A DNA stretch of 64,000 nt from an uncultured Actinomycetota bacterium. Its GTDB lineage: Bacteria; Actinomycetota; Actinomycetes; Actinomycetales; Microbacteriaceae. The notes under the pieces were generated by a model. The model was not told the origin of the DNA and ran no database searches. It worked only from the letters and a program-made list of their open reading frames with translations. Position numbers and translations under genes: made by a program. The stretch lies in the NCBI GenBank assembly GCA_963772625.1, contig CAVYXT010000017.1, positions 5,079 to 69,078 of the forward strand, written 5' to 3'. Shown piece after piece: positions 11,871-51,653 of the stretch; the first letter of the stretch is position 1, and the number at the start of each line of letters is the position of its first letter.

Positions 11871-12017
11871 GTCAGTCCTCTCCGCCCGAGGACGGTCCTC
11901 GGGTCGCGCCGGTGCCCGAGTGCCCGTCGGGCACCGGCGCCATCTCAGAATGCTTCCGCCGGCGAGCCCGTGACCATGGACGGCGCGCCTCTGCGGAAAG
12001 CCCAACCGGTGGCCGCT

Positions 12018-12028
12018 CTGGGGAGGAG
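12018..12028 (-). promoter_or_regulatory. Shared upstream box CTCCTCCCCAG, 66 nt above the CATTCT -10 of ssb
   Basis: Same box and spacing upstream of yraN and the M23 gene; second half-site TCCGCAG at 11991-11997. Confidence 0.6.
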
Positions 12029-12068
12029 TCGTCGGCCAGCGACTCCCGCTCAGGAGGACAAACCGCGA

Positions 12069-12090
12069 TGTCGGAGGTCGCACTTATCTT
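12069..12090 (+). promoter_or_regulatory. PafBC/RecA-NDp-type DNA-damage promoter TGTCGG-N10-TATCTT
   Basis: Exact match to the mycobacterial consensus TGTCGG-N10-TANNNT. Confidence 0.75.
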
Positions 12091-12111
12091 CGAAGGAGAA
12101 AGGAACATGCC

Positions 12112-12375
12112 ATGAGCACTCTCCTCGAAACCCCGACTCCCGGCACGCCCCACCTCTCGCGTGCGGCGCATGTCCGGCTCGTCCCAGCCGCACCCGGACT
12201 GTGGCGCATCACCGACCGCGGTGGCCGGGTGATCGGCCATCTCCAGGCGATCCGCCAGGGCGATGACGTCCGATTCAGCGCGCGGCGATTCCACGCACCG
12301 AGCCGCGCGTTCCGCGAGCTCGGTGAATTCTGGTCGGCCGACGACGCGGTCGAGTGCGTGACTTTCGCTCGCTGA
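12112..12375 (+). CDS. Small hypothetical protein (87 aa)
   Basis: Strong SD GAAGGAGAAAGGA; ORF MSTLLETPTPG...ECVTFAR directly downstream of the PafBC-type promoter. Confidence 0.75.
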   Translation: MSTLLETPTPGTPHLSRAAHVRLVPAAPGLWRITDRGGRVIGHLQAIRQGDDVRFSARRFHAPSRAFRELGEFWSADDAVECVTFAR

Positions 12376-12379
12376 CCGC

Positions 12380-13804
12380 TCAGACCACGGCGTCCAGCTG
12401 CTCGGCCATCGCGACAGGCGCTCCGCTGCGCACGCGCGGCCATGCCTCGGCGAGGATGTCGACGGCTCCGACCAGGTCGTCCGGCGACGCGGTGAACGGG
12501 ATGCGGAGGTGCCGGTCGTGGCCACCGTCCACGGAGAAGCGGGGACCGGCCGACAGAAGCAGTCCGCGCGAGCGCACATCCATCACGAGTGCCGAGCTCA
12601 GCGGCGCGTCGAGCTCGATCCACAGCGAGACTCCGCCCTGTGCATGTGGTGCCCGCCATTCCGGCAGAGCTCGCGAGACCGCCGCCGCGACGGCATCCCG
12701 ACCGGTGCGAAGGACATGCGAGCGCTGTGCGACGACCGCGCCGAACTGGGGGAAGAGGGCCGCGGCGACTGCCTGCTCGAACTCCGGAGTGCCCAGGTCC
12801 TGTGCGGAACGGGCCGCCACGAGTCGTCGCACGAGGTCGGTCTCGCCGCGGATCCACCCGACCCGCAATCCCCCCCACACGGTCTTGCCGAGCGAGCCGA
12901 CGCGGACCACGAGCGCGGGATCGCCGTCGAGGAAGGCGGGCGGGACCGGCCCGCGGTCGATGTCGAGGTCGGCGGTTGTCTCATCCAGCACCAGGATCGT
13001 GCCCGCCCGTTCCGCGGAGTGCAGGATCGTGGCTCGCTCCGCTGCGGACATCGATCGACCGGTGGGGTTCTGGAAGTCGGGCATCAGGTACGCCATGATC
13101 GGCAGCGTCCGTGCGAACGCCTGCTCGGCGCGATCCAGATCCCAACCACCCGCCGTGGTCACCGGCACGCCGACCAGTCGGGTGCCGGCGCGACGGAGCG
13201 CGTCGGCCGCGTGGGGGTAGGTCGGCGTCTCGATCAGCACCCGATCGCCCCGGCCCGAGAGCACCCCCGCCAGGAGGTGGATGGCGCTCTGTGCGCCGGT
13301 CGTCACGATGATCTGGCCGGGCGAGGTCGGGACTCCGCGGTCGCAGTATCGGCGGGCGATTGCCTCCCGCAGTTCGATGCGGCCGAACACGTCGTACCCG
13401 ACGCGGGATACCAGCGACGACGCCGACGCCGCGACTTCGGAAATGACCCCGGCCAATCCCGGCCATGCCGGCGGACTCGCCTGCTGCAGATCGATCGCGC
13501 CGTCGCTGACGAGCGTGCGCCCGGGGTCCCGGCGACGCAGCGGCAGCGTCACACTGCCGGAACCGCGCGTGCTCGCGATGTGCCCGGAGTCGCGGAGGCT
13601 TCGGTATGCCGCGGCGACGGTGCTGCGGCTCACCTGCAGGAACGCCGCCAGTTCCCGTTCCGCAGGCAGCGCTGTGCGCGGAGCGAGCCTGTTGTCCAGG
13701 CACAGGAGGCGGATGCCGTCGGCCAGAGCTTCATACGCCGGTTCACGAGTGCGCCAGCCGCCGAGGGCGGCAGCGAGTGCGCGAGCAGATATCCGGGAGT
13801 CCAT
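12380..13804 (-). CDS. MocR/GabR-family (YczR-like) GntR regulator with PLP aminotransferase-like domain
   Basis: wHTH LPAERELAAFLQVSRSTVAAAY...TRGSG; AAT-like domain with GSLGKTVWGGLRVGW. TACTCT lies 6 nt before the ATG. Confidence 0.9.
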   Translation of the reverse strand: MDSRISARALAAALGGWRTREPAYEALADGIRLLCLDNRLAPRTALPAERELAAFLQVSRSTVAAAYRSLRDSGHIASTRGSGSVTLPLRRRDPGRTLVSDGAIDLQQASPPAWPGLAGVISEVAASASSLVSRVGYDVFGRIELREAIARRYCDRGVPTSPGQIIVTTGAQSAIHLLAGVLSGRGDRVLIETPTYPHAADALRRAGTRLVGVPVTTAGGWDLDRAEQAFARTLPIMAYLMPDFQNPTGRSMSAAERATILHSAERAGTILVLDETTADLDIDRGPVPPAFLDGDPALVVRVGSLGKTVWGGLRVGWIRGETDLVRRLVAARSAQDLGTPEFEQAVAAALFPQFGAVVAQRSHVLRTGRDAVAAAVSRALPEWRAPHAQGGVSLWIELDAPLSSALVMDVRSRGLLLSAGPRFSVDGGHDRHLRIPFTASPDDLVGAVDILAEAWPRVRSGAPVAMAEQLDAVV

Positions 13805-13821
13805 GGAGCCAGAGTATCCGA

Positions 13822-13858
13822 ATTGGACTGCACGGTTCGTGCCAATCACACGATTGGA
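13822..13858. promoter_or_regulatory. Putative MocR/YczR operator: ATTGGA (13822), inverted CCAAT (13842), ATTGGA (13853)
   Basis: Two direct repeats plus one inverted copy in the 61-nt divergent gap, the layout known for GabR/PdxR-type regulators. Confidence 0.6.
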
Positions 13859-13865
13859 TGGCTCT

Positions 13866-14495
13866 ATGGCTCGTCGCATCATCCAGCTCCTCTCCGGCCT
13901 TCTCCTCTACGGTGCGGGCTGTGCTCTCACGGTCGAGGCCGGACTGGGTGTCGACCCCTGGACGGTGCTCGCGCAGGGGATCTCCGTGCACACGGGCATC
14001 GGCATCGGCTGGGTGACGAACATCCTCGGTTTCCTCGTACTGCTCCTGTGGATTCCGCTGCGACAGCGACCAGGCGTCGGAACGATCGCGAACATCCTGC
14101 TCGTGGGCACGAGCATGCAGGTCGTGCTGTGGATCGTCCCTCCCATCAGCGGGGTGTGGGCCCAGATCGGCGTCCTGCTGGGAGGCATCCTGCTCGTCGC
14201 CGTGGCTTCGGGGCTCTATATCGGAGCCCGCTTCGGTCCCGGCCCCCGCGACGGCCTGATGACCGGGCTGCATGCTCGCCTGGGCTGGCCGATCTGGGGC
14301 TGCCGCGCCCTCGTCGAGGTCTCGGTGCTCGCAATCGGCTGGTTGCTCGGCGGCACCGTCGGCATCGGCACGGTGCTGTTCGCGGTCCTCATCGGACCGC
14401 TCGTCCACGCGGCGCTGCCGCTGCTGGACACGGCTCGCGCTCCGAAGGCGCGTATGCCTGCCGAGCGGGCGCGGCCGACGCGCGCTCCGGTCTGA
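13866..14495 (+). CDS. YczE/YitT-family membrane protein
   Basis: GLGVDPWTVLAQG, PGVGTIAN, GPGPRDGLMTG and GGTVGIGT motifs; divergent from the YczR-like regulator. Confidence 0.88.
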   Translation: MARRIIQLLSGLLLYGAGCALTVEAGLGVDPWTVLAQGISVHTGIGIGWVTNILGFLVLLLWIPLRQRPGVGTIANILLVGTSMQVVLWIVPPISGVWAQIGVLLGGILLVAVASGLYIGARFGPGPRDGLMTGLHARLGWPIWGCRALVEVSVLAIGWLLGGTVGIGTVLFAVLIGPLVHAALPLLDTARAPKARMPAERARPTRAPV

Positions 14496-14499
14496 CGCG

Positions 14500-14709
14500 T
14501 CAGTGCTCGCGGAACTCCGGCCAGTCGCTGCCAGGCGTCATCCGCGAGTGCAGGGCGTTCTTCGCGATCTCCATCGAGGGATACTTGCCGGCCGACGAAT
14601 CGGCGCCGGCCATGGTCACGGTGTAGCCGTCCTCGTCCTTGCGGATGCTGCCGACGACGCCGGACTGCCCGTAGGCCACCCACAGGCTGTGATGCGTTTC
14701 AGTGCTCAT
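14500..14709 (-). CDS. Small hypothetical protein (69 aa)
   Basis: MSTETHHSLWVAYG...DWPEFREH with a GAAGGGG SD; typical codon usage. Confidence 0.7.
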   Translation of the reverse strand: MSTETHHSLWVAYGQSGVVGSIRKDEDGYTVTMAGADSSAGKYPSMEIAKNALHSRMTPGSDWPEFREH

Positions 14710-14825
14710 CTGAACCCCTTCCGTGCCCCTCGACGCTACGCCCGCTGGTGCGGTGACGCCAGTGGTCCGAACGGGCGTGTCGCACACCGTTTCTCGGTGG
14801 CGCGGCGCAGTCGACCGGCGGCTCG

Positions 14826-14901
14826 TGGTGCCCCCGACAGGACTCGAACCTGTGACCGGCGGATTAGAAGGCCGCTGCTCTATCCACTGAGCTACGGAGG
14901 C
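14826..14901 (-). tRNA. tRNA-Arg (anticodon UCU)
   Basis: GCCTCCGTAGCTCAGTGGATAGAGCAGCGGCCTTCTAATCCGCCGGTCACAGGTTCGAGTCCTGTCGGGGGCACCA; 76 nt with encoded CCA. Confidence 0.95.
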
Positions 14902-14991
14902 GCGAAACAAGGTTATCGCGCCGCGATCAGCGGCCTGGAGACGCCCTCCAACCGGAAGCCGTGTCCGAGGCCCCTGACTAGGATGGACCCC

Positions 14992-15618
14992 ATGGTGGGG
15001 GCATCCGACAACGACCGGCTCGTGTGGATCGATTGCGAGATGACGGGCCTGGACCTGTCGGTCGATGAGCTCGTCGAGATCGCCGTCGTCGTCACCGACT
15101 TCGAGCTCCGGCCCCTCGATCCGGGGTTCTCGATCGTGATCAAGCCGGATGCGTCGGCGATGGCTCACATGAACGACTTCGTGACCGACATGCACCAGAA
15201 GTCCGGTCTGCTGACCGAGATCCCCGGCGGTGTGAGCGTCGCCGAAGCGGAGTTCGAGGCGCTCGAGTATATCCAGCGCTTCGTGCCGCTCGAGGGAAAG
15301 GCGCCCCTGGCGGGCAACACGATCGGCACCGACCGCATGTTCCTCGCGAAGTACATGCCGCGCGTGGATCGCTGGCTGCACTACCGCAACGTCGACGTCT
15401 CCAGCATCAAAGAACTCAGCAGGAGGTGGTATCCCAGGGCGTACATCCACGCCCCCGCGAAAGGTGGCGGTCACCGTGCTCTCGCCGACATCCGCGAATC
15501 CATCCTGGAACTGACCTATTACCGCTCCGCGGTCTTCGTGCCCGAGCCCGGCCCGACCAGTGACGGGGCCCGTGCCGCGGCGGCCGCCGCCGTTTCGTCG
15601 TTCGCTCCCGGAGTATGA
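14992..15618 (+). CDS. orn: Oligoribonuclease
   Basis: LVWIDCEMTGLD, LAGNTIGTDRMFL, HYRNVDVSSIKEL and HRALADIRESI motifs. TAGGAT lies 7 nt before the ATG. Confidence 0.95.
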   Translation: MVGASDNDRLVWIDCEMTGLDLSVDELVEIAVVVTDFELRPLDPGFSIVIKPDASAMAHMNDFVTDMHQKSGLLTEIPGGVSVAEAEFEALEYIQRFVPLEGKAPLAGNTIGTDRMFLAKYMPRVDRWLHYRNVDVSSIKELSRRWYPRAYIHAPAKGGGHRALADIRESILELTYYRSAVFVPEPGPTSDGARAAAAAAVSSFAPGV

Positions 15619-15654
15619 GAGAATTTTCGGGTTGCCCGCACGCGCGGGAGACAT

Positions 15655-15731
15655 GGTGGGTATAGCTCAGTTGGTAGAGCACCTGGTTGTGGTCCAGGGG
15701 GCCGCGGGTTCAAGTCCCGTTACTCACCCCA
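15655..15731 (+). tRNA. tRNA-His (anticodon GUG)
   Basis: G(-1)GTGGGTATAGCTCAGTTGGTAGAGCACCTGGTTGTGGTCCAGGGGGCCGCGGGTTCAAGTCCCGTTACTCACCCCA; C discriminator plus CCA. Confidence 0.95.
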
Positions 15732-16082
15732 ATGCTTGACATGGATGCCGCGGCTTTCGAGTCTCTCGTGGTCGACGAGCTCGATCGGCTTCCCGACGAC
15801 ATGGTCGAGGGGCTCGACAACGTGGTCTTCGTCGTCGAGGATCGCCCGGAAGACGGAAGCCTGGATCTGTTCGGCCTCTACGATGGATGGGCACTTACCG
15901 AACGCGATCGCTATGGTGCGGGCGAGCTGCCCGACCGCATCATCGTGTACCGCGAGCCGCACCTGGCCGCCTGCGATACCGCGGGCGAGCTGCGCGACGA
16001 GGTGCACACCACGCTCGTGCACGAGATCGCGCACTTCTACGGAATCGACGACGAACGACTCCACGAACTGGGATGGGCCTGA
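15732..16082 (+). CDS. Zincin-like metallopeptidase family protein
   Basis: PDRIIVYREP...TLVHEIAHFYGIDD (HExxH). Start at 15732 or 15741. Confidence 0.85.
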   Translation: MLDMDAAAFESLVVDELDRLPDDMVEGLDNVVFVVEDRPEDGSLDLFGLYDGWALTERDRYGAGELPDRIIVYREPHLAACDTAGELRDEVHTTLVHEIAHFYGIDDERLHELGWA

Positions 16083-16381
16083 TGGTGCTGCTCGCAACGC
16101 CCGACCTCGACGAGCAGGTGGGCACGCAGCTCGACCAGGAGACGATGCCGCCCTGGCAGACGGTCGTGTGGAACGACCCGGTCAACCTCATGAGCTACGT
16201 CACGCACGTCTTCCGCGAGTACTTCGGATTCGACCGGCCGCGTGCCGAGCAGCTGATGCTCGCGGTGCACCACGAAGGTCACGCCGTGGTGGCGGAAGGT
16301 GCTCGCGAGCAGATGGAGCTGCACGTGCAGGCCATGCACGACTACGGCCTGTGGGCGACCATTCGGCAGGCCCCGCGATGA
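16082..16381 (+). CDS. clpS: ATP-dependent Clp protease adaptor ClpS
   Basis: WQTVVWNDPVNLMSYVTHVF...MLAVHHEGHAVV...GLWATI. Confidence 0.92.
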   Translation: MVLLATPDLDEQVGTQLDQETMPPWQTVVWNDPVNLMSYVTHVFREYFGFDRPRAEQLMLAVHHEGHAVVAEGAREQMELHVQAMHDYGLWATIRQAPR

Positions 16382-16881
16382 GCGGCGCGCGCACGGTCGT
16401 GCTCGAGCTGACGCGGATGGAGGCCGCCCACCTCGCCGGACTGGTGACGCAGTTCACGGAGCTCCTCGAGGGTGCTGAGAGCGGCGCGGGCGACCCCGCG
16501 ATCGCTCGCCTCGTGCCGGATGCCTATGCGGACGACGCCGCCGCTGCGCAGGATTTCCGTGACGTGACGGAGAACGATCTGCTCGAGCGCCGCCGACAGG
16601 ATGCTGCGGCGGTGCTCGACTCGCTCCGCGAACCCGCCACGCTTCCCGACGACGCCGAGCCGGACGACGAGGTCCTCATGGAACTCGTGGAGCTGCGCCT
16701 GCAGCCCGAAGCCCTGCGGGCGTGGCTGCGCTGCCTGGCGGCGATCAGGCTTGTGCTCGCCACGCGCCTGGACATCCGCAGCGAGGACGATCACGACGTC
16801 GACGATCCTCGGTTCGGGATCTACGAGTGGCTCGGATATCGGCTCGACGGGCTGGTGCAGGCCGCGTCGGGCGACGAGTGA
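16378..16881 (+). CDS. DUF2017-like protein (actinobacterial clpS neighbour)
   Basis: DPAIARLVPDAY...WLRCLAAIRLVLATRL...IYEWLG; ATGA overlap with clpS. Confidence 0.8.
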   Translation: MSGARTVVLELTRMEAAHLAGLVTQFTELLEGAESGAGDPAIARLVPDAYADDAAAAQDFRDVTENDLLERRRQDAAAVLDSLREPATLPDDAEPDDEVLMELVELRLQPEALRAWLRCLAAIRLVLATRLDIRSEDDHDVDDPRFGIYEWLGYRLDGLVQAASGDE

Positions 16882-16888
16882 GCGGCCC

Positions 16889-17482
16889 TCACGGGATTGC
16901 GAAGACGTGCGTCGCCAGACCGGTAGGACCGTCGCGCGCGATGTGGCGCTCCTCCTGCTCAGCCCACCGGGTCCAGTGCGGCCGGAAGGTGTCGCCGTCT
17001 CGTTCCAGTGCCCGTCGCATGCGCGACCGCTGCGGTGATTCGAGCCACACGCGCACGTCACCGAGCCGGGCCGTCTCAGCAGTGAGCAGCCCCGAGCCTT
17101 CGACGATCAGCGGCAGCGAGGGGTCGACGGCATGCGCCTCGGCGGGAGCGGACGCGTCCCAGTCCCAGCGCTCCCACACCCCGATCAGCCCGCGCGCGTG
17201 CGGCCGGAGGATCAGGTCGCGGGCTGCCTCCACGCCGTCGGCGAGGCCGTCCCACCCTGGGTAGAGGGAGTCGAGGGCGACAAGCTGCACCCGCCCGCGG
17301 AGCGGCCACCGAGCGACCAGCCTCCGGGCCAGGGATGTCTTTCCGGAGCCGCTGCGGCCGTCGATGAGCACGACCGGATTCGACGCGGCGACGCCGACGA
17401 TCGCCGCGAGGACTTGGGAGGCCGCGATGTCGAGGGCGGCGGTGACGGGGTCGGCGTCAGCGCTTGAGCGCGCGGATGACAC
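16889..17482 (-). CDS. P-loop nucleoside/uridine-kinase-like protein
   Basis: VVLIDGRSGSGKTS Walker A; LDSLYPGW, LIVEGSG and VRVWLE motifs. Confidence 0.8.
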   Translation of the reverse strand: MSSARSSADADPVTAALDIAASQVLAAIVGVAASNPVVLIDGRSGSGKTSLARRLVARWPLRGRVQLVALDSLYPGWDGLADGVEAARDLILRPHARGLIGVWERWDWDASAPAEAHAVDPSLPLIVEGSGLLTAETARLGDVRVWLESPQRSRMRRALERDGDTFRPHWTRWAEQEERHIARDGPTGLATHVFAIP

Positions 17483-17777
17483 GGCTCAGTGCGCGACCGG
17501 TGACCCACACGAACGGAATCGCCACCGCGAGGAAGGAGACGATGTTCGGCTCGAACCGGAGATCGCCGCCGCGACGGACGTATGCCCCCAGCGGCACGGC
17601 ATAGCCGCCTCCTGCGCCTCCGCCGTTGCCCGCCTCGTCGGATCCTCCGCCGAAGCCGGACCACGTGATGGCGACCGGAACGATGCGGACGCCGTCGACG
17701 TCCACCTGCTCGCCGTAGGCGCTCTTCACGCCGAAGGTCGCGGACTGCTTGCCGAGCTCGAGTGCGATGTTGGGCAT
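17457..17777 (-). CDS. Small GerW/YtfJ-like membrane-associated protein
   Basis: VKSAYGEQVDVDGVRIVPVA...FGGGS...GGGAGGG...PLGAYV motif. TACCGT lies 6 nt before the ATG. Confidence 0.65.
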   Translation of the reverse strand: MPNIALELGKQSATFGVKSAYGEQVDVDGVRIVPVAITWSGFGGGSDEAGNGGGAGGGYAVPLGAYVRRGGDLRFEPNIVSFLAVAIPFVWVTGRALSRVIRALKR

Positions 17778-17833
17778 GTCTCCACGGTAGCGGGCCGAGG
17801 GCGGCAAGCCCAGCGCGGGGCGCCGGTTGGCGC

Positions 17834-19093
17834 TCAATCCATGAGCGGCGGCTTCGGGTGCGAGGGCGGAGACCCTCCCCCGCGCGCACCGCCGATCAGC
17901 GTTGCGCGCGTCACCGCTCCGCGCCCGAACCGCGCGGTCGCGTCGTCGAGTGCGCCCTCGACCCGACGCCACTCGGCGTCGTCATCCCACAGCACCGGCT
18001 CGCCGCCGCCGGCAGCGCGCAGCTTCTCGGCTCGAACTCCGACCAGCCGCACCGGCAGTGGTCGTTCGACCGAGCCGAACAGGTCCAGGGCCGCCTCGCC
18101 GATGCGCTGGCCGACGGCGGTCGGCTCGGGAAGGGTCTGCGATCGGCTGATCGTCGTGAAGTCCGCGAACCGGACCTTGATCGCGATCGTGCGCGCCTCC
18201 CACCCGTGCTTGCGCAGACGCGCACCGACGCGATCCGCGAGCCGGCGGAACTCCGAGCGCAGCACGGCCGGATCGTCGATATCGGTGAGGAATGTCTCCT
18301 CGTGGCCGACGCTCTTCTCCACCTGCTGGGTCTCGACACTCCTGGCATCCACGCCGCGGGCGAGGTGCCAGATGCGGTCGCCCATCGCACCGCCGAGCGC
18401 GCGGTCCAGGACCGGGCGCGGTGTCTCGAGCACATCCGCGACGGTGTGGATGCCGCGCGCCTCGAGCACCTCGGCGGACTTGGGCCCGATGCCCCACAGC
18501 GCACGCACGGAGCGCGGTGCGAGGAAGGCGGCGGTATCGGCCTCCGAGACGATCAGCAGGCCGTCCGGCTTGCTGATCGTGGACGCCATCTTGGCGACAT
18601 GCTTGGTGGCGGCGACGCCGATGCTGCAGGTCAGTCCGGTCTCGTCGAGTACGCGCTGACGCAGCATCCGAGCGATATGACCGGGCGTGCCCCACAGTCG
18701 CCGCGCGCCGCGCACGTCGAGGAACGCCTCGTCGATCGAGAGCGGCTCGACGAGAGGCGTCACGTCGTGGAAGATGCGCATGACCTCTTTCGAGAGTGCG
18801 ACATAGCGCTCGAAGTTCGGGCGCACCGTGATCGCGGTGGGACACAGGCGCAGCGCCTGCCCGACCGACATCGCCGAGCGGACGCCGAATCGGCGTGCTT
18901 CGTAGGATGCACTGGAAACGACCCCGCGTCCTTCGAAACCGCCGACGATGATCGGCTTGCCTCTCAGCGATGGGTCGTCGAGCACTTCTACGGACGCGTA
19001 AAAGGCGTCCATGTCGACGTGCAGGATGCCGGTGCCGGCGTCGTCCGCGCCGTCGGGCGAGACGAGCCGTCCCGTTCCGTCGCCCCGTCCCAT
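17834..19093 (-). CDS. dinB: DNA polymerase IV
   Basis: ILHVDMDAFYASVE, SASYEARRFGVRSAM, SIDEAFLD and KMASTISKPDG motifs. Confidence 0.95.
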   Translation of the reverse strand: MGRGDGTGRLVSPDGADDAGTGILHVDMDAFYASVEVLDDPSLRGKPIIVGGFEGRGVVSSASYEARRFGVRSAMSVGQALRLCPTAITVRPNFERYVALSKEVMRIFHDVTPLVEPLSIDEAFLDVRGARRLWGTPGHIARMLRQRVLDETGLTCSIGVAATKHVAKMASTISKPDGLLIVSEADTAAFLAPRSVRALWGIGPKSAEVLEARGIHTVADVLETPRPVLDRALGGAMGDRIWHLARGVDARSVETQQVEKSVGHEETFLTDIDDPAVLRSEFRRLADRVGARLRKHGWEARTIAIKVRFADFTTISRSQTLPEPTAVGQRIGEAALDLFGSVERPLPVRLVGVRAEKLRAAGGGEPVLWDDDAEWRRVEGALDDATARFGRGAVTRATLIGGARGGGSPPSHPKPPLMD

Positions 19094-19099
19094 GAGCCG

Positions 19100-19121
19100 A
19101 TGATCCCCGCAGCCGCCGACA
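19100..19121 (-). promoter_or_regulatory. PafBC-type promoter TGTCGG-N10-GATCAT, 6 nt before the dinB ATG
   Basis: Perfect TGTCGG with N10 spacing; the -10 has G instead of T at position 1. Confidence 0.65.
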
Positions 19122-19134
19122 ACTCGCTCGACGA

Positions 19135-20634: not shown

Positions 20635-20635
20635 G

Positions 20636-22464: not shown

Positions 22465-22525
22465 TCGCCAAGTCTAGGCGGTCCGCAATCTGAGGCTTGC
22501 GGGGAGCCAGGCCTAGGCTGATCGG

Positions 22526-24226: not shown

Positions 24227-24244
24227 CTCCCGCCGCTTTCGAGC

Positions 24245-24553: not shown

Positions 24554-26919
<2,366 letters not shown>

Positions 26920-40480: not shown

Positions 40481-40481
40481 G

Positions 40482-40766: not shown

Positions 40767-40771
40767 GGGGC

Positions 40772-41551: not shown

Positions 41552-41608
41552 AGTGTTCCGAGTCTACCCGGGGAGGCGGGAAGGTGCCATTCGGGGTGGA
41601 TTCCGCCG

Positions 41609-43212: not shown

Positions 43213-43217
43213 CAGCG

Positions 43218-43772: not shown

Positions 43773-43824
43773 AGTGACTCCAATCGGTAGATCCAGCGCG
43801 CTCAGTCTAGTCGCGCCCCCGCCG

Positions 43825-44544
43825 TCAGACCGTGACGACGGTGCCGATCGATTCGCCCAGCAGGGCCTTGGTCACATTGCCCGCGGGCTCCATGCCGAAC
43901 ACGCGCATGTCCATCCCGTTGTCCATGCACAGGCTGAACGCGGTCGAGTCGACGACCTTCAGTCCTCGCTGCAGCGCGTCGAGGTAGGTGATCCGATCGA
44001 TCTTGGTCGCATTCGGGTCCTTGTGCGGATCGGCGGTGTAGACCCCGTCGACGCCGTTCTTGGCCACCAGCACTTCGGATGCACCGATCTCGAGCGCCCG
44101 CTGGGCGGCGACGGTGTCGGTGGAGAAGTACGGCAACCCGGCGCCGGCACCGAAGATCACGACCCGGCCCTTCTCCATGTGCCGCTCGGCGCGGCGCGGG
44201 ATGTACGGTTCGGCGACCTGTGTCATCGCGATCGCCGACTGCACGCGGGTCGCTGCGCCCGCCTGCTCGAGGAAGTCCTGGAGGGCGAGTGCGTTCATCA
44301 CGGTGCCGAGCATGCCCATGTAATCGGCTCGCCCGCGGTCCATTCCGCGCTGGCTCAGCTCCGCGCCGCGGAAGAAGTTGCCGCCACCGACGACGACGGC
44401 GATCTCGACACGATCGACCGCCGCGGCGATCTCGCGTGCGATCTGGCTGACGATGTCGGGGTTGACCCCCAGCTGGCCGCCGCCGAACGCCTCGCCCGAG
44501 AGCTTGAGCACCACTCGCCTGGTTCCAGTCGTCTCATCGATCAC
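43825..44544 (-). CDS. pyrH: UMP kinase
   Basis: [26 protein letters not shown] and FSTDT motifs. Confidence 0.97.
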
Positions 44545-44610
44545 GTGTCATCCTCTCCTCGCGTACAGAATCATCTAAGGGCATCGGGTGTGCCCTCTCC
44601 AAGGCAAGCG

Positions 44611-44642
44611 AAAAGGCCCGCATCCAGCGATGCGGGCCTTTT
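44611..44642 (-). terminator. Intrinsic (bidirectional-type) terminator after tsf
   Basis: AAAAGGCCCGCATC-cagc-GATGCGGGCCTTTT, a perfect 14-bp stem. Confidence 0.85.
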
Positions 44643-44649
44643 CACGGTG

Positions 44650-45477
44650 CTACGCGCCGACCTTGAAGCGGGCGAACCCGGTGAGGGTCAGACCCGCGTC
44701 CTTGGCGACCTGGGCGACGGACAGCTTATTGTCCTTCGCGTAGTCCTGGTCCAGGAGCGAGACCTGCTTGAAGAAGGCGTTCACGCGGCCCTCGACGATC
44801 TTCGGCAGAGCGGCCTCGGGTTTGCCCTCCTGGCGCGAGATCTCGGTGACGATCTCACGCTCCTTGTCCACGTCCGCCGCGGGGACCTCGTCGCGCGACA
44901 GGTAGGACGGGTTGGCGAACGAGATGTGCTGCGCGAGGCTGCGTGCAGTCTCCGCGTCGTCACCCGAGTAGGCCAGGACCACGCCGACCTGCGGGGGCAG
45001 GTCCTTGCTGGTCTTGTGCAGGTAGACCTCGAAATGATCGCCGGTCAGCGTGCGAACACGACGCAGTTCGACCTTCTCGCCGATGATTGCGGCCTCGTCG
45101 TCGATCAGCTGCGCGACCGTCGACGAACCGGCGGGCGCGGCCAGCGCGGTCTCCACCGAGTCCGCGGCGACAGCGGCCGCGGCATCCGCGACCTTGTCGG
45201 CCAGCGCGATGAAGCGGTCGTTCTTCGCGACGAAGTCGGTCTCGCAGGCCAGCTCGATCAGCGTGACCTTGCCGCTCTGCTCGCGGGCGGTGACCAGACC
45301 CTCGCTCGTGGAACGATCGGCACGCTTGGCGTTGCCCTTCGCACCCTTGAGGCGCAGGATCTCGACGGCCTTCTCGACGTCGCCGTCGGCCTCTTCGAGG
45401 GCCTTCTTGGTGTCGACCATGCCGGTTCCGAGCTGGTCACGCAGCGCCTTGATGTCGGCGATCGTGAAGTTTGCCAT
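44650..45477 (-). CDS. tsf: Translation elongation factor Ts
   Basis: IKALRDQLGTGMVDTKKAL, ELACETDFVAKN and KIVEGR motifs. Confidence 0.97.
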   Translation of the reverse strand: MANFTIADIKALRDQLGTGMVDTKKALEEADGDVEKAVEILRLKGAKGNAKRADRSTSEGLVTAREQSGKVTLIELACETDFVAKNDRFIALADKVADAAAAVAADSVETALAAPAGSSTVAQLIDDEAAIIGEKVELRRVRTLTGDHFEVYLHKTSKDLPPQVGVVLAYSGDDAETARSLAQHISFANPSYLSRDEVPAADVDKEREIVTEISRQEGKPEAALPKIVEGRVNAFFKQVSLLDQDYAKDNKLSVAQVAKDAGLTLTGFARFKVGA

Positions 45478-45519
45478 GTGTGGCGGCTCCTTGCTTGAGT
45501 TCAGTTGCGAAGTGGATGC

Positions 45520-45553
45520 CTCGGCGGGGCCGTCATGGAACGACCCCGCCGAG
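45520..45553 (-). terminator. Stem-loop between rpsB and tsf (terminator, attenuator or stabiliser)
   Basis: CTCGGCGGGG...CCCCGCCGAG 10-bp arms plus inner pairs; no U-tract. Confidence 0.5.
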
Positions 45554-45583
45554 TGCGCCTGCCGGCGCGAATGCCTGATCGGA

Positions 45584-46567
45584 CTACTTGGCGTCTTCGG
45601 CCTCGGCGGCCTCGACATCGGCGACGGGCTCGCCCGCCGCGTCTGCGATGGCCTCGTCGTGAGCCTCGGCACCGGCCACATCGTCGGCGGTCTCCGTCGC
45701 GGTCTCGCCCTCGACGGCCTGCTCTGCCTCGACGGCCTCGGCGAGGTCGTCGGCGGCGATGGCCTCATCGGCGACCTTCTCGGTCTCGGCGGAGGACTGT
45801 TCCGGCGCGCCCTGCTCGAGCAGCTCGCGCTCCCAGTCGGCGAGGGGCTCGGCGTCGGCCGACTCGTCGGTCGGGTTGTGGCGCTGGATGAGGCCCTCGG
45901 CGGCAGCGTCGGCGATGATGCGGGTGAGCAGGCCCACCGAGCGGATCGCGTCGTCGTTGCCGGGGATCGGGTACTGGAATTCGTCCGGGTCGGCGTTCGT
46001 GTCGAGGATGCCGATGATCGGGATGCCGAGCTTGGTGGCCTCGTTCACCGCGAGGTGCTCGCGCTTGGCGTCCACGACCCAGATCGCCGAAGGGGTCTTC
46101 GACATGTTGCGGATTCCGCCGAGCGACTTGTGCAGCTTGTCGAGCTCGCGCTTCTTCAGCAGCAGCTCCTTCTTGGTGAAGCCGCTGTCAGCGGGGTTCT
46201 CGTAGTCGAGCTCCTCGAGCTCCTTCATGCGGGCGAGGCGCTTGGAGACCGTCTGGAAGTTGGTGAGGAGGCCGCCGAGCCAGCGCTGGTTCACGTAGGG
46301 CTGGCCGACGCGGGTCGCCTGCTCGGCGATGATCTCCTGGGCCTGCTTCTTGGTGCCGACGAAGAGGACCGTGCCGCCGTGGGCGACCGTCTCCTTGACG
46401 AACTCGTACGCCTTGTCGATGTACGTCAGCGACTGCTGCAGGTCGATGATGTGGATGCCGCTGCGCTCGGTGAGGATGAAGCGCTTGACTTTCGGGTTCC
46501 ACCGGCGGGTCTGGTGTCCGAAGTGGACGCCGCTGTCGAGCAGCTGGCGAATGGTGACGACGGCCAT
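45584..46567 (-). CDS. rpsB: 30S ribosomal protein S2
   Basis: [38 protein letters not shown] and [10 protein letters not shown] motifs; acidic C-terminal tail. Confidence 0.98.
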
Positions 46568-46790
46568 GGCCGTTCTCCTGTTCTCGACGCTCGGAAGCGC
46601 CGCTTGCGGTTGTGTCTTCCGCCGGATCCGAATGGCCGGCGAGCCTGGTGCCCGGCACACTCCCGCTCCAGCGCGAAATCGCACTGTGAGACCGGTGGGA
46701 GGAGATGCCGCGCGTTCGTGAACCTGCGGTTCGCGTTCGCGCTCTGGGCACGCGTATTCACCCCGACAGGCGAGGTGTCCGTCCAGTGTA
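46568..46790 (-). promoter_or_regulatory. rpsB promoter (-10 TACACT at 46785-46790) and about 210-nt 5' leader, likely an S2 autoregulatory RNA
   Basis: Long untranslated leader with GGGGUG/ACAC elements. S2 leaders are known in many phyla; the fold was not computed. Confidence 0.5.
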
Positions 46791-46800
46791 TCAGCAGGCT

Positions 46801-46811
46801 CTCCTCCCCAG
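46801..46811 (+). promoter_or_regulatory. Shared upstream box CTCCTCCCCAG, 66 nt above the GAGGAT -10 of the M23 gene
   Basis: Second half-site TCCCCTG at 46832-46838; -10 lies 6 nt before ATG 46889. Confidence 0.6.
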
Positions 46812-46888
46812 CTTCCGGCGGTTCGGATCTGTCCCCTGCTTTCTCCGCGGCCACTGTCCAGGAGATTCGAGGGCGCGAGGATGGCCCG

Positions 46889-47473
46889 ATGCCGCGCCTC
46901 CCCCGACGTCATCACGGCCGCGCTGAGCGCGCGGCGGCAGCGGTGGGGACCTCGCTCCTGGTGCTTCTCGTTTCCTTCGCAGCTTCTGATCGTTCCGCGG
47001 CGCTTCTCGCGCCCCCGCCTCCTGCGAAGACGGTCACCTCCGCGTCGACGCCCGATCTTGCCGCCCTCGGCTGGATCTGGCCTGCGTCGAGGTTCCGGCT
47101 CGCCCGTCCGTTCGTCGCGCCCGCGCACAAGTACGGGCCTGGTCACCGCGGCGTCGACCTCGACCTCCTCGGCGATTCAGTCGTGCAGGCACCCGCGGAC
47201 GGCGTGGCGGCGTTCGCGGGGAGTGTCGCAGGCCGCGGCATCCTCACGATCGACCATGGCAACGGCCTCGTCACGACACTGGAACCGGTCGACACCGCCG
47301 TCGAGCCGGGCACACCCGTTCGTCGCGGTGAGGCAGTCGCGACGCTGGCTGCCGGCGGACACGCCGCGTCCGGGGCTCTGCACTTCGGCGTACGCCTGCA
47401 TGGCGAGTACATCAATCCGATGTTGCTGCTCGGCGGCGTGCCGCGGGCCGTCCTGCTGCCGTGTTGCGACTGA
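46889..47473 (+). CDS. Secreted M23 family peptidase
   Basis: Signal/TM, then GHRGVDL...APADG...HG...TTLEPV...LHFGVR; the second His motif appears replaced (TTLEP instead of YAH). Confidence 0.85.
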
Positions 47474-47493
47474 CGAGCTTCGGGTCCCGCCCT

Positions 47494-48402
47494 TCAAGCT
47501 CTCGGGTGCGCGAGGCGATACGTCGCGGCGAGCCGTTCGGACGAGACGTGGGTGTAGATCTGGGTGGTGCCCAGGCTGGCATGGCCGAGCATCTCCTGAA
47601 CGGCACGCAGGTCCGCTCCCCCGTCGAGAAGATGTGTGGCCGCCGAATGACGCAGCGCGTGCGGCCCGACCGCCGACGTGCCCAGCACCTTCCCCAGTTC
47701 CCGCGCAACCACGTCGTACACGGCGCGGGGTGAGATGCGTGCGCCACGGGTCCCGAGGAAGAGCGCGGAGCCCGAACCTGCAGTGTCGGTTCGCTCTCCC
47801 AATGCCGGGCGGGCGCGTGCGACGTAGGCTTCGACCGCGCGGCGAGCCGGCGCTCCGAATGGGACGACACGCTCTTTGGATCCCTTGCCGAGCACCCGCA
47901 GTGTCGCGCGGTCGAAATCCACGTCGTCGATGTCCAGGCCGGTGAGCTCGGACACGCGCACCGCCGATCCGTAGAGCACCTCGAGCATCGCGGAGTCGCG
48001 CAGATCGACGGGGTCGCCGCGAGACGCGCGCTCGGCGAGCCCATCGAGCATGCCCCGGACCCCGTCGGCGGTCGCAACCTGGGGAAGCGTTCGTCCGCGC
48101 TTGGGCGCCACGAGGCGCAGGCTCGGATCGGCCGCCACGAGGCCGGTCTCGGCGGCCCACGCGAAGAAGCCGCGCGCTGCGGCGGTGCGACGGGCGAGCG
48201 TGGACCGGGCGTCCCCGCGCTGCGTCGCTTGCCAGAGCCACTCGCGGAGCGCCTCGAGGTCGACCTCGGTCACGTCCGCATCGGCGACGGTCGCGGACAG
48301 ATCGCGCAGATCCGCCCGGTACGCCCGCACCGTCGCGGGCGAGAGGCGGCGCACGCGTTCGAGATGCTGCGCGTAGGCCTCAGCCGCCTTGTCGAGCTCC
48401 AT
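47494..48402 (-). CDS. xerC: Tyrosine recombinase XerC
   Basis: RDSAMLEVLYGSAVRVSEL, GKGSKERVVP, HALRHSAATHLL and LGH..L.TTQIY motifs; conserved position after dprA. Confidence 0.9.
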   Translation of the reverse strand: MELDKAAEAYAQHLERVRRLSPATVRAYRADLRDLSATVADADVTEVDLEALREWLWQATQRGDARSTLARRTAAARGFFAWAAETGLVAADPSLRLVAPKRGRTLPQVATADGVRGMLDGLAERASRGDPVDLRDSAMLEVLYGSAVRVSELTGLDIDDVDFDRATLRVLGKGSKERVVPFGAPARRAVEAYVARARPALGERTDTAGSGSALFLGTRGARISPRAVYDVVARELGKVLGTSAVGPHALRHSAATHLLDGGADLRAVQEMLGHASLGTTQIYTHVSSERLAATYRLAHPRA

Positions 48403-48452
48403 TGCTCCAGCATGCCCCGTCAGCGGATGGGTCGCGCCGCGGCGCACGGCTC

Positions 48453-49679
48453 TCAGCCCGATGGCACAGCCGGACGCGCGCGGCGCCACCCGCTGTCACT
48501 CCGCATGGCTGCGCCCTCGACGGCGAGTAGGCCCAGGATCGCCATGACATCCGCCGGGGCGAGTCCGCAGCGGCGGGCGATGTCGGTCACCTCCCGCCAT
48601 GCGCGAAAGCTCATCGCGTCGAGAACGCGGGTCACGTCATCTGTGCGGCCCCGCCCGCTGTCCGAGCCTTCAACCGGCCGATCGAACAGCGCCGGAGAAG
48701 GCCCGCCGAGCAGCTCGAGCGCTTCGTCCGCGTTGGTCACGCACCGTGCGTCGAACTCGCGCAGAAGCCGATGGCACCCGGCGGAGGCCGCGCTCGTCAC
48801 CGGTCCGGGCACCGCGCCGAGCGGGCGCGAGAGCGCCGCCGCATGCCCGGCCGTGTTGAGTGACCCGCTGCGCCACCCCGCTTCGACGACCACCGTCGCG
48901 TCGGCGAGTGCCGCGATGAGTCGATTGCGCTGAAGGAACCTCCACTTGGTCGGCGTGGTCGCGCACGGCACCTCGCTCACGACGGCGCCGGAGCCGGCGA
49001 TCCGCTCGATCAGGTTCGCGTGCCCGGCCGGATACGGCCGGTCCACGCCGCCCGCGAGCAGAGCGACGGTGATGCCGCCCGCCGCGAGAGCAGCTCGGTG
49101 GGCCGCGCCATCGATGCCGTAGGCGGCCCCCGACACGATGGAGACGCCGCGGCCGACGAGCTCGGCGGCCATTTCGACCGCGATGTGCTCGCCGTAGCCG
49201 GTCGCCGCGCGGGCACCCACGAGGGCGATCGACGGCGAGAGGCGCGACAGCGTGTCGACATCGCCCCGGACCCAGAGCAGGAGCGGCGCGTGATGACCCA
49301 GATCCGTGAGAGACGCGGGCCACTGCGCGTCCTCGGGTGTGATCACCGAGATCCCGGAGCGCCGGGCGACCTCGAGCGCGTCCTGGACGGCACTCCGCTT
49401 CAGCCGTGGACGCCACCGATCCAGGCCCTCCTGCCACTCCCGGGGAGTGATCCCGGCGGCATTCAGCACGCCCGGATCGCTGTCGGCCCTCACGACTTGG
49501 TCGAGTGCCGCCTCGGGTCCGAGCGCGCTCACGATCCGCCCCGCGACGCCGTCGCCGGGCTCGATGAGGCAGCTCCAGGTGTGCACGGCGTACAGCCGCC
49601 GGGCACGGTCGTCGTCCAGCTCTCCGTGCACGAGCGGAGCGAGCTCGGCTCGGACTTCGCGCGGGTGGGGCCGAGTCAT
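48453..49679 (-). CDS. dprA: DNA-processing protein DprA
   Basis: LWVRG, IALVGARAATGYG, VSGAAYGIDGAAH, FLQRNRLIAAL and VVEAGWRSGSLNTA motifs; C-terminal wHTH. Confidence 0.95.
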   Translation of the reverse strand: MTRPHPREVRAELAPLVHGELDDDRARRLYAVHTWSCLIEPGDGVAGRIVSALGPEAALDQVVRADSDPGVLNAAGITPREWQEGLDRWRPRLKRSAVQDALEVARRSGISVITPEDAQWPASLTDLGHHAPLLLWVRGDVDTLSRLSPSIALVGARAATGYGEHIAVEMAAELVGRGVSIVSGAAYGIDGAAHRAALAAGGITVALLAGGVDRPYPAGHANLIERIAGSGAVVSEVPCATTPTKWRFLQRNRLIAALADATVVVEAGWRSGSLNTAGHAAALSRPLGAVPGPVTSAASAGCHRLLREFDARCVTNADEALELLGGPSPALFDRPVEGSDSGRGRTDDVTRVLDAMSFRAWREVTDIARRCGLAPADVMAILGLLAVEGAAMRSDSGWRRARPAVPSG

Positions 49680-51205
49680 ATGGTGATGCCTTTCTTCATG
49701 AAGAGCGCGCGACCGATATCGTGCACGCTGGGGCTCGCGCGCCCGGCCAGATCGCCGAGCGTCCATGCGACGCGCAGGACGCGGTCGTAGCCCCGCAGCG
49801 TCAGCGACCCGCGTTGAAGTGCCGCGTCGATCGGGCGGCGGACCACAGGTGCGAGCGCGAGCGGTCCTTCGCGCAGCCAGGGGGCGGAGACGCGGGCATT
49901 GATGCGCCAGGGCGTGTCGCGCAGCCGATGCGCCGCGCGCGCCCGGGCTTCCGCAACGCGGGCGGCAGCGGCATCCGTCGTCACGGCGTCGACCGTGAGG
50001 TCAGCAGCGTGCGCGACCGAGACCCGAGCGAGTCCGAGCTCGATGTCGACTCGGTCCAGCAGCGGTCCCGAGAGCTTTCCCAGGTATCGCCGGATCGCCA
50101 TCGGCGGGCAGATGCAGCTCGCACCGCGAACCCCGTAGTTGCCGCAGGGGCACGGGTTGGTGGCCAGGATCAGCTGGAAGGAGGCGGGGAAGGATGCCGC
50201 GACCCCGGCTCGATGGATGGTGATCGCGCCTTTCTCGAGTGGCTGGCGCAGTGCGTCGAGCACGCTCGGCGGAAACTCCCCCACCTCATCGAGGAACAGC
50301 ACGCCGTGCGTCGCGCGCGCGATCGCTCCCGGCCGGAGCACGCGCGACCCGCCTCCGACGAGCGCCGCAATGCTCGCACTGTGGTGCGGCGCCTCCAGCG
50401 GCGGCCGCCGGGCGAGCGAGCTCACCGGGTCGCCCGAGAGGGATCGGATCGCCGCGACCTCCAGCGCCGCGGCGTCGTCGAGCGCGGGGAGGATCCCCGG
50501 GAGCCGGTTTGCCAGCATCGTCTTGCCGGCACCCGGTGGACCGCTCATCAGCATGTGATGCCCGCCCGCGGCGGCGGCGATCAGCGCCTCGACGGCGTCG
50601 CGCTGACCGATCACGTCCGCCAGATCGGCATCGCCGTGCTGCTCCCGTACGGATGCGGGCGCGGGAACCGGATCGAGCCGGCGCTCCTCGACGTCCGCGC
50701 CGTGCCACCGAGCGACGTCGGCGAGCGACACGGCACCCACGACTTCGATTCCCTCCACGAGCGAGGCCTCCGCCGCGTTCGCGTGCGGCACGATGACCCG
50801 GCGCTTGCCCTCACGGGCTGCCGCCATGACGGCCGGCAGCACGCCCGGCACGGGACGGAGGCGACCGTCCAGTCCGAGCTCGCCGATGTGCACCGTCTGC
50901 GCGATGGAGTCGGCATCCATTCGTCCCTGGGTCGCCAGCGACGCGATGGCGATCGCGACATCGAACCCGGATCCGTGCTTTGGCACGCTGGCCGGCGACA
51001 GATTCACGGTGAGCCGGCGTCGCGGCAGCGCGAGGCCGCAGTTCGCGCTCGCGTTGTGCACACGCTGCACCGCCTCGCCCAGCGCCTTGTCGGGCAGGCC
51101 GATGATGCGGAACTCCGGCGTCTGGTTCGAGAGGTCCGCTTCGACCTCGACCAGGTCGCCGTCCAGGCCGGTCAGCGCGATGGCCCACGTGCGCGCGGTC
51201 GTCAC
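49676..51205 (-). CDS. comM: YifB/ComM Mg-chelatase-like AAA+ helicase
   Basis: IIGLPD, TVNLSPA, GPPGAGKTM, APHHSAS, GVLFLDE, NPCPCG and SGPLLDRVD motifs. Confidence 0.92.
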   Translation of the reverse strand: MTTARTWAIALTGLDGDLVEVEADLSNQTPEFRIIGLPDKALGEAVQRVHNASANCGLALPRRRLTVNLSPASVPKHGSGFDVAIAIASLATQGRMDADSIAQTVHIGELGLDGRLRPVPGVLPAVMAAAREGKRRVIVPHANAAEASLVEGIEVVGAVSLADVARWHGADVEERRLDPVPAPASVREQHGDADLADVIGQRDAVEALIAAAAGGHHMLMSGPPGAGKTMLANRLPGILPALDDAAALEVAAIRSLSGDPVSSLARRPPLEAPHHSASIAALVGGGSRVLRPGAIARATHGVLFLDEVGEFPPSVLDALRQPLEKGAITIHRAGVAASFPASFQLILATNPCPCGNYGVRGASCICPPMAIRRYLGKLSGPLLDRVDIELGLARVSVAHAADLTVDAVTTDAAAARVAEARARAAHRLRDTPWRINARVSAPWLREGPLALAPVVRRPIDAALQRGSLTLRGYDRVLRVAWTLGDLAGRASPSVHDIGRALFMKKGITI

Positions 51206-51564
51206 CGCAGGTCCTCGAGATGCTCGAGGACGGCGGTCGCGGGATCGGGGCCGGTCAGAGCGACCGCGTCCAGCCGGAGCCGTCGACCCTGCGCCTCATC
51301 CGGGTGGGCCGCGATCCACGCGATGGCCAGGCGCCACATTCGACGCTGCTTGCGATCGTCGACCGCCTCGAACGGGTGCCCGAAGCCGTCGCCTCGGCGT
51401 GTCTTGACCTCGACGACGACCAGCTCGCCCGCGCGGGCGACGACGAGGTCGAGCTCCCCGTCTCTGATGCGCCAGTTGCGGTCGAGGACGACGTAGCCGC
51501 TCGCCTCGAGGTACCGCGCGGCCCGGTCTTCGCCTGCGCGGCCCAGCACATCCTTGGCTGCCAT
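51202..51564 (-). CDS. yraN: YraN (UPF0102) family nuclease-fold protein
   Basis: GRAGEDRAARYL...RNWR...GELDLV...VEVKTR...K..R...R.DAV. CACGAT lies 6 nt before the ATG. Confidence 0.92.
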   Translation of the reverse strand: MAAKDVLGRAGEDRAARYLEASGYVVLDRNWRIRDGELDLVVARAGELVVVEVKTRRGDGFGHPFEAVDDRKQRRMWRLAIAWIAAHPDEAQGRRLRLDAVALTGPDPATAVLEHLEDLR

Positions 51565-51642
51565 GAAGGCATCGTGACGCGGGATCCGACGAGCCAGCCC
51601 AGGGCATCACGACATCCGTGAATCAGCACCGGCTACGCGTAC

Positions 51643-51653
51643 CTGTGGAGGAG
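51643..51653 (-). promoter_or_regulatory. Shared upstream box CTCCTCCACAG, 67 nt above the CACGAT -10 of yraN-comM-dprA
   Basis: Second half-site TTCACGG at 51616-51622. Confidence 0.6.

Follow-up and report, generated by a model that had tools for sequence, protein, structure and literature searches.

The stretch of DNA analysed here, which we call the window, is a 64,000-nucleotide section (positions 5079-69078 of contig C17) of the 3.96-Mb, 69% GC genome of an uncultured member of the Microbacteriaceae (label G000), whose closest named relatives all belong to Microbacterium. It contains three copies of an 11-nucleotide box, each in front of a different transcription unit: ssb2, which encodes a second single-strand DNA-binding protein, a gene for an M23 family peptidase, and the yraN-comM-dprA operon. 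A preliminary description of the window had reported this box, together with a second half-site and a weak -10 element at fixed distances, and had proposed that they mark an undescribed competence regulon. We consider it likely that the natural-competence regulon of this Microbacterium is defined by a two-box operator, and that the 11-mer forms its promoter-distal half (Box 1).

Three box-bearing promoters in the window

All three 11-mers lie where the preliminary description had placed them, each on the sense strand of its downstream gene, with the second half-site (Box 2) ending 27 nt past Box 1. On the minus strand, Box 1 of the yraN operon (51643-51653, CTCCTCCACAG) is followed by Box 2 (51616-51622, TTCACGG, extended as TTCACGGATG, for which the ortholog consensus is cTCTCCACGGATG) and by the -10-like hexamer CACGAT (51571-51576), which begins 67 nt after the box. 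Six nucleotides past the hexamer is the leaderless ATG (51564) of yraN (51202-51564), the first open reading frame (ORF) of the operon. Its stop overlaps the start of comM (49676-51205, minus strand), which encodes a Mg-chelatase-like AAA+ helicase, comM is overlapped in turn by the dprA ORF (48453-49766, minus strand), and after dprA comes xerC (47494-48489), which overlaps its end.

On the plus strand, Box 1 of the M23 gene (46801-46811, CTCCTCCCCAG) leads to Box 2 (46832-46838, TCCCCTG) and, 66 nt after the box, to the hexamer GAGGAT (46877-46882). The ATG of the gene (46889) is again 6 nt past the hexamer and leaderless, and opens a peptidase of 194 residues (46889-47473; Pfam Peptidase_M23, E = 1e-13). 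This Box 1 stands 10 nt from the divergent -10 element of rpsB (TACACT, 46785-46790), and because the arrangement is conserved in relatives, a protein bound at the box could influence rpsB-tsf transcription as well. The rpsB leader is about 215 nt long and is partly conserved.

The same Box 1 sequence, CTCCTCCCCAG, is found ahead of ssb2 (12018-12028, minus strand), with Box 2 at a TCC-to-TCC distance of 27 nt (11991-11997, TCCGCAG) and, beginning 66 nt after the box, a hexamer CATTCT (11947-11952) that reads CATTCT or CAATCT at the same place in relatives. An ATG three bases past CATTCT is out of frame, and the true start of the 184-residue protein (11316-11870, minus strand; Pfam SSB, E = 2e-16) is the ATG at 11870. 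Transcription is predicted to start near 11940, which would give a structured 5' leader of about 70 nt (11871-11940, minus strand). The predicted leader begins at the base of a 5'-terminal hairpin (GCGCCGGTGCCCG...CGGGCACCGGCGC) and continues through a second hairpin to the Shine-Dalgarno (SD) sequence GAGAGGA, with a folding energy of -49 kcal/mol (z = -5.66 versus shuffles). The sequence of the first hairpin was found again in several Microbacterium species, and the two hairpins may be an mRNA-stabilising or autoregulatory element.

Divergent from ssb2 is an ORF of 87 residues (12040-12375, plus strand) without a Pfam family. It has the PafBC-type arrangement TGTCGG-N10-TATCTT in front of it and possibly a 15-codon upstream ORF whose stop overlaps its ATG (ATGA). 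In relatives the gap between ssb2 and this ORF holds a LexA-box-like word, TCGAAC-N4-(G/T)TCGA.

A two-box module across the genome and the genus

Exact copies of CTCCTCCMCAG number 3 in the window against an expectation of 0.13, a count that none of 100 shuffles reached, and there are just 14 in the entire 3.96-Mb genome. Three of the 14, two in coding sequence and one 43 nt before a start codon, are clearly no promoter sites or fit the pattern poorly, and the remaining 11 are in promoter-like intergenic contexts. The full architecture is present in nine to ten of the 11 intergenic copies. Alignment of these copies, with the first base of Box 1 as position 0, gives Box 1 as [C/T/A]TCCTCC[C/A]CA[G/A] (positions 0-10) and Box 2 as TCC[A/C]CnG (positions 31-37), a direct repeat of Box 1 at a TCC-to-TCC distance of 27 nt. 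Box 1 is centred near -81 and Box 2 near -54. The aligned box-bearing promoters are without a recognisable -35 element, and their -10-like hexamer, whose second base is A and sixth base T, begins 64-68 nt past Box 1. This hexamer keeps A(-11) and T(-7) and usually has C or G, not T, at -12; T at -12 is absent from 15 of the 19 member promoters.

An ATG or GTG start codon follows 6-8 nt after the -10, so most box-bearing genes appear to be leaderless, and transcription is predicted to begin with the first base (A or G) of the start codon to give a leaderless mRNA. The complete geometry of such a promoter, with A(-11), T(-7), a -10 placed 6-7 nt before the start and no SD sequence, was found at yraN, comEA, comFC, the M23 gene and the gene for an HTH_17 protein that is discussed below as a candidate binder. 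Among 66 looser matches to the box (NNCCTCCMCAR), 11 have Box 2, a correctly placed -10 and a start codon, compared with a chance expectation of about 0.2 by our own estimate from the non-member matches. A scan with a two-box position weight matrix returned 19 matches of at least 20 bits against 1 in a reversed-sequence control; a point that weighs against our interpretation here is that the matrix was trained on the very sites that it ranked highest, so the new matches are what count.

The preliminary description had also asked whether orthologous upstream regions conserve the box and its spacing, and they do so in all five gene sets tested. The counts were made in orthologous upstream regions of the same genus, from about 24 Microbacterium species, and compared with coding controls. 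Pooled over yraN, comFC, comEA, ssb2 and M23, a box-like element is present in 88/89 upstream regions (22/89 controls) and the box pair in 63/89 (5/89 controls). By gene set, the box-like element occurs in 22/22 regions for yraN (control 1/22), 20/21 for comFC (5/21), 23/23 for comEA (13/23), 11/11 for ssb2 (2/11) and 12/12 for M23 (1/12), while the pair occurs, in the same order, in 14/22 (0/22), 11/21 (1/21), 20/23 (3/23), 10/11 (0/11) and 8/12 (1/12). An alignment of 24 yraN orthologs on their ATG shows conservation of no proximal columns other than A(-11), found in 21 of 24, T(-7), found in 20 of 24, and C(-1), and the sequence between the boxes is not conserved in it. That A(-11) and T(-7) stay constant implies that transcription starts at the start codon and that the boxes are upstream of the transcript.

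Across the class Actinomycetes two copies of TCCACAG precede yraN at a lineage-specific spacing. Rhodococcus and Antrihabitans have a spacing of 18 nt, Oerskovia, Cryobacterium, Curtobacterium and Herbiconiux one of 27-28 nt, and Microbispora and Streptosporangium one of 31 nt. Box 2 of yraN reads TTAYCCACATAG in Arthrobacter, and the longer form TCCACGGATG(C) of Box 2 is frequent among the yraN and comFC orthologs (L001-L053). Box 1 also has a TGCAC variant, which shows a trend towards co-variation across promoters within a subclade; one genome, G007, mixes both forms. The yraN boxes are absent from the sampled outgroups, which were Bacteroidaceae, Longimicrobiaceae, Coriobacteriaceae and Acidimicrobiales.

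The position of the boxes bears on whether they function as DNA at all. They could instead act in RNA, as an anti-SD sequence or riboregulator within a leader of about 90 nt, or could be a chance repetition of GC-rich, SD-like sequence, since CTCCTCC is complementary to GGAGGAG and AGGA stands 7 nt ahead of the ATG in four members. Both possibilities are extremely unlikely. Shuffled sequence folds at least as well as the regions from box to start (z = +1.0 to +1.75), the conservation of A(-11) and T(-7) but not of the inter-box sequence places the boxes outside the transcript, an Rfam search of the window gave two tRNAs only and no match at the boxes, and the chance expectation is exceeded about 50-fold. 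Nor is the box the SD sequence of the divergent genes, a concern raised by the preliminary description, as the nearest divergent starts are 84-240 nt away. Two other candidate elements were rejected: AGGATG, considered as a conserved third element, is confined to four members and consists of one form of the -10 plus the following G, and CGGATG, considered as a separate element, varies in position.

The genes that carry the module include those from which the preliminary description had expected support. A module of the same spacing precedes comEA-comEC, comFC and a gene for a TadA-type pilus ATPase, and a variant precedes recA; it is therefore found ahead of both DNA-uptake and DNA-processing genes. 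The comEA-comEC(-holA) unit, with a -10 of TACGTT and a leaderless GTG, encodes a ComEA with SLBB and HHH_3 domains and a ComEC with Competence and Lactamase_B domains. The product of comFC combines a PRTase domain with a double zinc ribbon, and the gene lies directly downstream of one inferred by synteny to be lpqB. Among the ORFs after the pilus ATPase gene (T2SSE/TadA) is one whose N-terminus resembles TadE, as judged from reading its sequence. At recA (contig C2, 110475, plus strand) the variant CTCCTGCACAG-N20-GTCCACAC is at the usual distance from a PafBC-type promoter, TGTCGG-N9-TAGCGT, and this promoter may integrate DNA-damage and competence signals.

Approximately 15 further genes carry the module, most of them DNA-related. 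One encodes an Ogt/MGMT-like protein (C16:432316-432840, plus strand) in which the PCHR motif reads PVHR, which would make it an alkyltransferase-like (ATL) protein without the acceptor cysteine. Others encode a DUF4192 protein, three DUF222-HNH proteins (C5:102458, C1:2970 and C13:2771), and at least seven paralogs that join an AbiEi_4 winged helix-turn-helix to a DUF559 restriction endonuclease-like domain (C16:180725, C2:54282, C2:667046, C16:194830, C13:36313, C11:306814 and C2:515020). A WXG100-like gene and several genes for membrane or unknown proteins complete the set. A group of nuclease-like genes thus appears to be co-regulated with DNA uptake.

The boxes might instead belong to a system already known in Actinobacteria, either as elements of an alternative sigma factor or as sites of a regulator such as MtrA or PafBC. 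MtrA targets in Corynebacterium include M23-type peptidases, and comFC lies next to the synteny-inferred lpqB of the mtrA-mtrB-lpqB cluster; for PafBC, TGTCGG-N9/10-TANNNT elements are present at the recA promoter and at the ORF divergent from ssb2. We nevertheless consider all of these very unlikely. A gap of 65 nt between box and -10 cannot be that of a -35/-10 pair, which argues against a sigma factor. MtrA operators are direct repeats of the form GTnAC-n4/6-GTnAC that have a period of 11 bp (PMC6265350, PMC13189361), while the boxes have the sequence TCCNCAG at a distance of 27 bp, and no MtrA operator was recognised in them. A PafBC/RecA-NDp promoter has a TGTCGG(TG) element 8-10 nt upstream of TANNNT; the three window promoters contain no TGTCGG element, and at recA and at one DUF222-HNH gene the PafBC-type element is additional to the module. 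The architecture, its specificity within the genome, the genes that carry it and its conservation are all read directly from the genomes compared here, and we hold it very likely that the cis-module and the competence regulon are real.

DnaA and an HTH_17 protein as candidate readers

The caution in the preliminary description that the box resembles a degenerate DnaA box was well placed, because the core of the box, TCCACAG, is the core of the DnaA box. The high-affinity box of DnaA is TTATCCACA, or TTGTCCACA in Mycobacterium and Streptomyces (PMC4285127). The oriC, dnaA and dnaB regions of this genome contain boxes of the form TT[A/C/T]TCCACAG, spaced 11-12 nt apart at oriC. Compared with the DnaA-box consensus (TTATNCACA, or TTGTCCACA in Actinobacteria), Box 2 and the box in the HTH_17 promoter match in the core or in full, and Box 1 deviates. 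Upstream of the replicative helicase gene dnaB (C7:3220-3290, minus strand) is a cluster of three canonical DnaA-box-like sites, TTCTCCACAG, TGTCCACAG and TTATCCACAA, followed by a TAGCGT -10, which suggests that dnaB is under DnaA control.

The shared core, together with the identity of the HTH_17 promoter box to oriC boxes, means that DnaA itself could be the reader, and this weighs against a dedicated competence regulator. The competence and recombination genes would then be tied directly to replication-initiation status, and the HTH_17 gene would be either a further target of DnaA or the middle step of a cascade that runs from DnaA through HTH_17 to the com genes. In keeping with this, the core is identical to that of the oriC, dnaA and dnaB boxes even in its trailing G, the yraN Box 1 (TCCTCCACAG) is one base off an oriC box (TTCTCCACAG), and Box 2 matches TTATCCACA or TTGTCCACA perfectly in other lineages, among them Arthrobacter, Microbispora and Dactylosporangium. 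The C/G variation between TCCAC and TGCAC falls at a position that we take to be degenerate in the Escherichia coli consensus TTATNCACA. The differences in box spacing between lineages (18, 27 or 31 nt) would suit boxes bound by monomers, and the sites, like DnaA boxes, are asymmetric and in direct orientation. A search for the Bac_DnaA_C domain found DnaA as the sole protein of the genome that contains it, so a DnaA paralog was rejected as the reader.

Several features of the boxes speak against DnaA. Box 1 in Microbacterium is CTCCTCC[C/A]CAG, with C at DnaA-box positions 2 and 3 in 17/17 sites (T2 to C) and C in place of the critical A7 in 11/17, whereas all of the oriC, dnaA and dnaB boxes keep TT and A7. 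The invariant TCC and the frequent C7 point to a motif conserved in its own right and not to a DnaA box that has decayed. The 27-bp spacing is fixed, in contrast to the 11-12 bp among oriC boxes, the gene set is one of competence and recombination and not of replication, and the genetics of Micrococcus luteus implicates an HTH_17 protein and not dnaA. DnaA is the main rival reader, and we regard regulation by it as unlikely; the probability left over after DnaA and the HTH_17 protein falls to some other factor.

The option that we consider most likely, although only tentatively, is that the boxes are read by a 93-residue winged-helix protein of the Xis/BldC type (HTH_17), one of six HTH_17 matches in the genome. 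Its gene (C15:50265-50543, minus strand) is divergent from a gene for a SAF-domain (CpaB-like) protein. The protein matches PF12728 and TIGR01764 (E = 1e-8), and its structural model has a predicted local distance difference test (pLDDT) score of 87-93 over residues 11-60. Foldseek matches the model to 4J2N (Xis of mycobacteriophage Pukovnik) and to 6AMA and 6AMK (BldC-DNA) at a root mean square deviation of 0.9-1.3 A and a probability of 1.00, with E-values that are marginal (3e-3 to 2e-2). The promoter of the gene reads gTTATCCACAGc, 37 nt, CATAAT, 6 nt, ATG; it is leaderless and carries a perfectly conserved box, TTATCCACAG, exactly at the position of Box 2. This arrangement is kept in 22 of 24 Microbacterium species, TCCACA[A/G] boxes precede HTH_17 homologs in 24 of 29 genomes sampled across the class, and the box would provide autoregulation or feed-in. 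The Microbacterium protein departs from the class consensus in its helix-turn-helix and wing and has its own ASFPELWG tail, genus-specific changes that we infer to parallel the genus-specific Box 1.

Support for this candidate comes from M. luteus, in which nearly all mutants with a constitutive comEA/EC promoter have single nucleotide polymorphisms in Mlut_14660, in its 5' untranslated region (UTR) or in the divergent SAF gene (PMC8467076). Mlut_14660 is a protein of the HTH_17 excisionase family whose gene resisted deletion, and some of the mutations fell in clpX and clpP (Torasso Kasem et al. 2021, PMC8467076). The SAF/HTH_17 locus is thereby linked genetically to comEA/EC promoter activity and to transformability (PMC8467076). 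The layout is the same in both genomes, with a small HTH_17 gene divergent from a SAF-domain gene for the Flp pilus (Mlut_14650/40, SAF-CpaB/CpaE, in M. luteus). In M. luteus, however, no operator, binding site or regulon was defined, and the authors favour a repressor together with transcriptional interference (PMC8467076); the present genome contributes a cis-element and a genome-wide target set, both read from sequence.

The fold of the candidate is also informative about how the boxes might be bound. BldC of Streptomyces, which shares the winged helix with phage Xis (6AMA, 6AMK, 4J2N), binds direct repeats head to tail (PMC5859096), and a direct-repeat operator fits this mode of binding. 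The systems differ in that BldC uses AT-rich repeats (AATTxxxxC) that adjoin one another every 9 bp while those described here are C-rich and 27 bp apart, and in that the HTH_17 candidate has an extra long helix and the conserved ASFPELWG tail. A BldC filament might use an additional TCC box, phased at 9 bp, in the interval from Box 2 to the -10; this idea was rejected, as no such box showed positional enrichment in 18 + 45 aligned promoters.

A combination of the two readers can also be envisaged, in which a class-wide switch on DnaA-box-like sites has DnaA, as a gauge of replication or nutritional status, at the proximal box and HTH_17 at the distal box. DnaA would also read the box at the HTH_17 promoter, HTH_17 would possibly be subject to ClpXP turnover, and DNA uptake, recombination by RecA, DprA and ComM, and wall remodelling would fire only in a defined replication state. 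Competition of HTH_17 with DnaA at oriC could explain why the gene is not deletable in M. luteus. The presence of only a canonical proximal box in the HTH_17 promoter fits this speculative model, which we think improbable.

Direction of control and relation to other competence systems

For the two-box operator with an HTH_17 binder, we infer binding at the boxes, the direction of control and an inducing signal. A sequence-specific protein would bind the two direct repeats head to tail and would aid RNA polymerase at intrinsically weak promoters, so that the genes would be switched on together. The lack of T at -12 in 15 of 19 promoters suggests that they depend on activation, and we place activation at about an even chance, repression lower, with the remaining probability going to a mixed mode of control. 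Several points weigh against this account as a whole. The positions -54 and -81 are unusual for an activator, and comEA, tad and recA have a canonical TANNNT -10, so that activation may be unneeded there. The leaderless ATG predicted at the tad promoter is out of frame with the tadA ORF, in which the first in-frame ATG is about 104 nt downstream. The HTH_17 gene is a putative ortholog of Mlut_14660, assigned as such by family, size and synteny. The model put forward for M. luteus has the protein acting as a repressor and not as an activator, and its binding to the com promoter was not demonstrated there (PMC8467076).

With the same operator and the same binder, the protein could instead be a repressor that nucleates at the boxes and silences the promoters, for example by a filament or bend of the Xis/BldC type, with competence following its removal. 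In rich medium the comEA/EC promoter becomes more active when Mlut_14660 carries point mutations (PMC8467076), proteins of the BldC type form oligomers on DNA at a repeat of 9 bp (PMC5859096), and the -10 boxes of comEA, tad and recA are good matches to TANNNT. Against this, the boxes lie upstream of the -35/-10 region and do not overlap it, the absence of T at -12 from 15 of 19 member promoters suggests that these need activation, and there is no periodic sequence signal between the boxes and the -10. The Mlut_14660 alleles are recurrent missense or 5'UTR changes in an undeletable gene, and mutations in clpX or clpP give the same phenotype, a pattern that gain of function or stabilisation of an activator would fit equally well. 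Repression is in our view possible but rather doubtful.

The gene set has a parallel in Bifidobacterium pseudocatenulatum, where induction by more than 10-fold is shared by tad, comEA-EC, dprA-comM-yraN, an SSB gene and a WXG100 gene, and where transformation requires tad, comEA-EC and dprA-comM-yraN (PMC13660472). This co-induced set is orthologous to box-bearing genes described here, but no regulator or motif was reported for it. A 2026 study states that the regulon for competence in M. luteus and its upstream regulators are unknown (PMC12849477). We found no paper in the searchable literature that describes the two-box operator. To our knowledge ComK, ComX and TfoX are absent from Actinobacteria. 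The module resembles CRP-S/Sxy (PMC1635313), the ComK boxes and the ComX/SigX cin-box in that one motif unites genes for uptake (comEA/EC, comF, pilus) and for processing (dprA, comM, ssb, recA), and it resembles CRP-S in that the motif looks like a non-canonical version of the site of a global regulator. It differs from all of these in its motif, its geometry (-81/-54 and leaderless), its phylum and its presumed factor.

Control of natural transformation in Actinobacteria is an open question, and a DNA box at a fixed distance before genes of uptake, processing and recombination probably marks an undescribed competence switch in this group. The module supplies a testable regulatory code, made up of an operator, a genome-wide list of targets and a candidate regulator with genetic support from M. 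luteus, and the list joins pilus, uptake, processing, recA and wall-remodelling genes. It nominates as competence-associated a number of unstudied genes, namely those for the AbiEi-DUF559 proteins, the DUF222-HNH nucleases, the DUF4192 protein and the Ogt-like protein that lacks the catalytic cysteine. The switch could explain why competence genes are retained in genera that have never been seen to transform, such as Microbacterium, Rhodococcus and Streptosporangium, and it suggests a route to switching competence on for the genetic engineering of laboratory and industrial strains.

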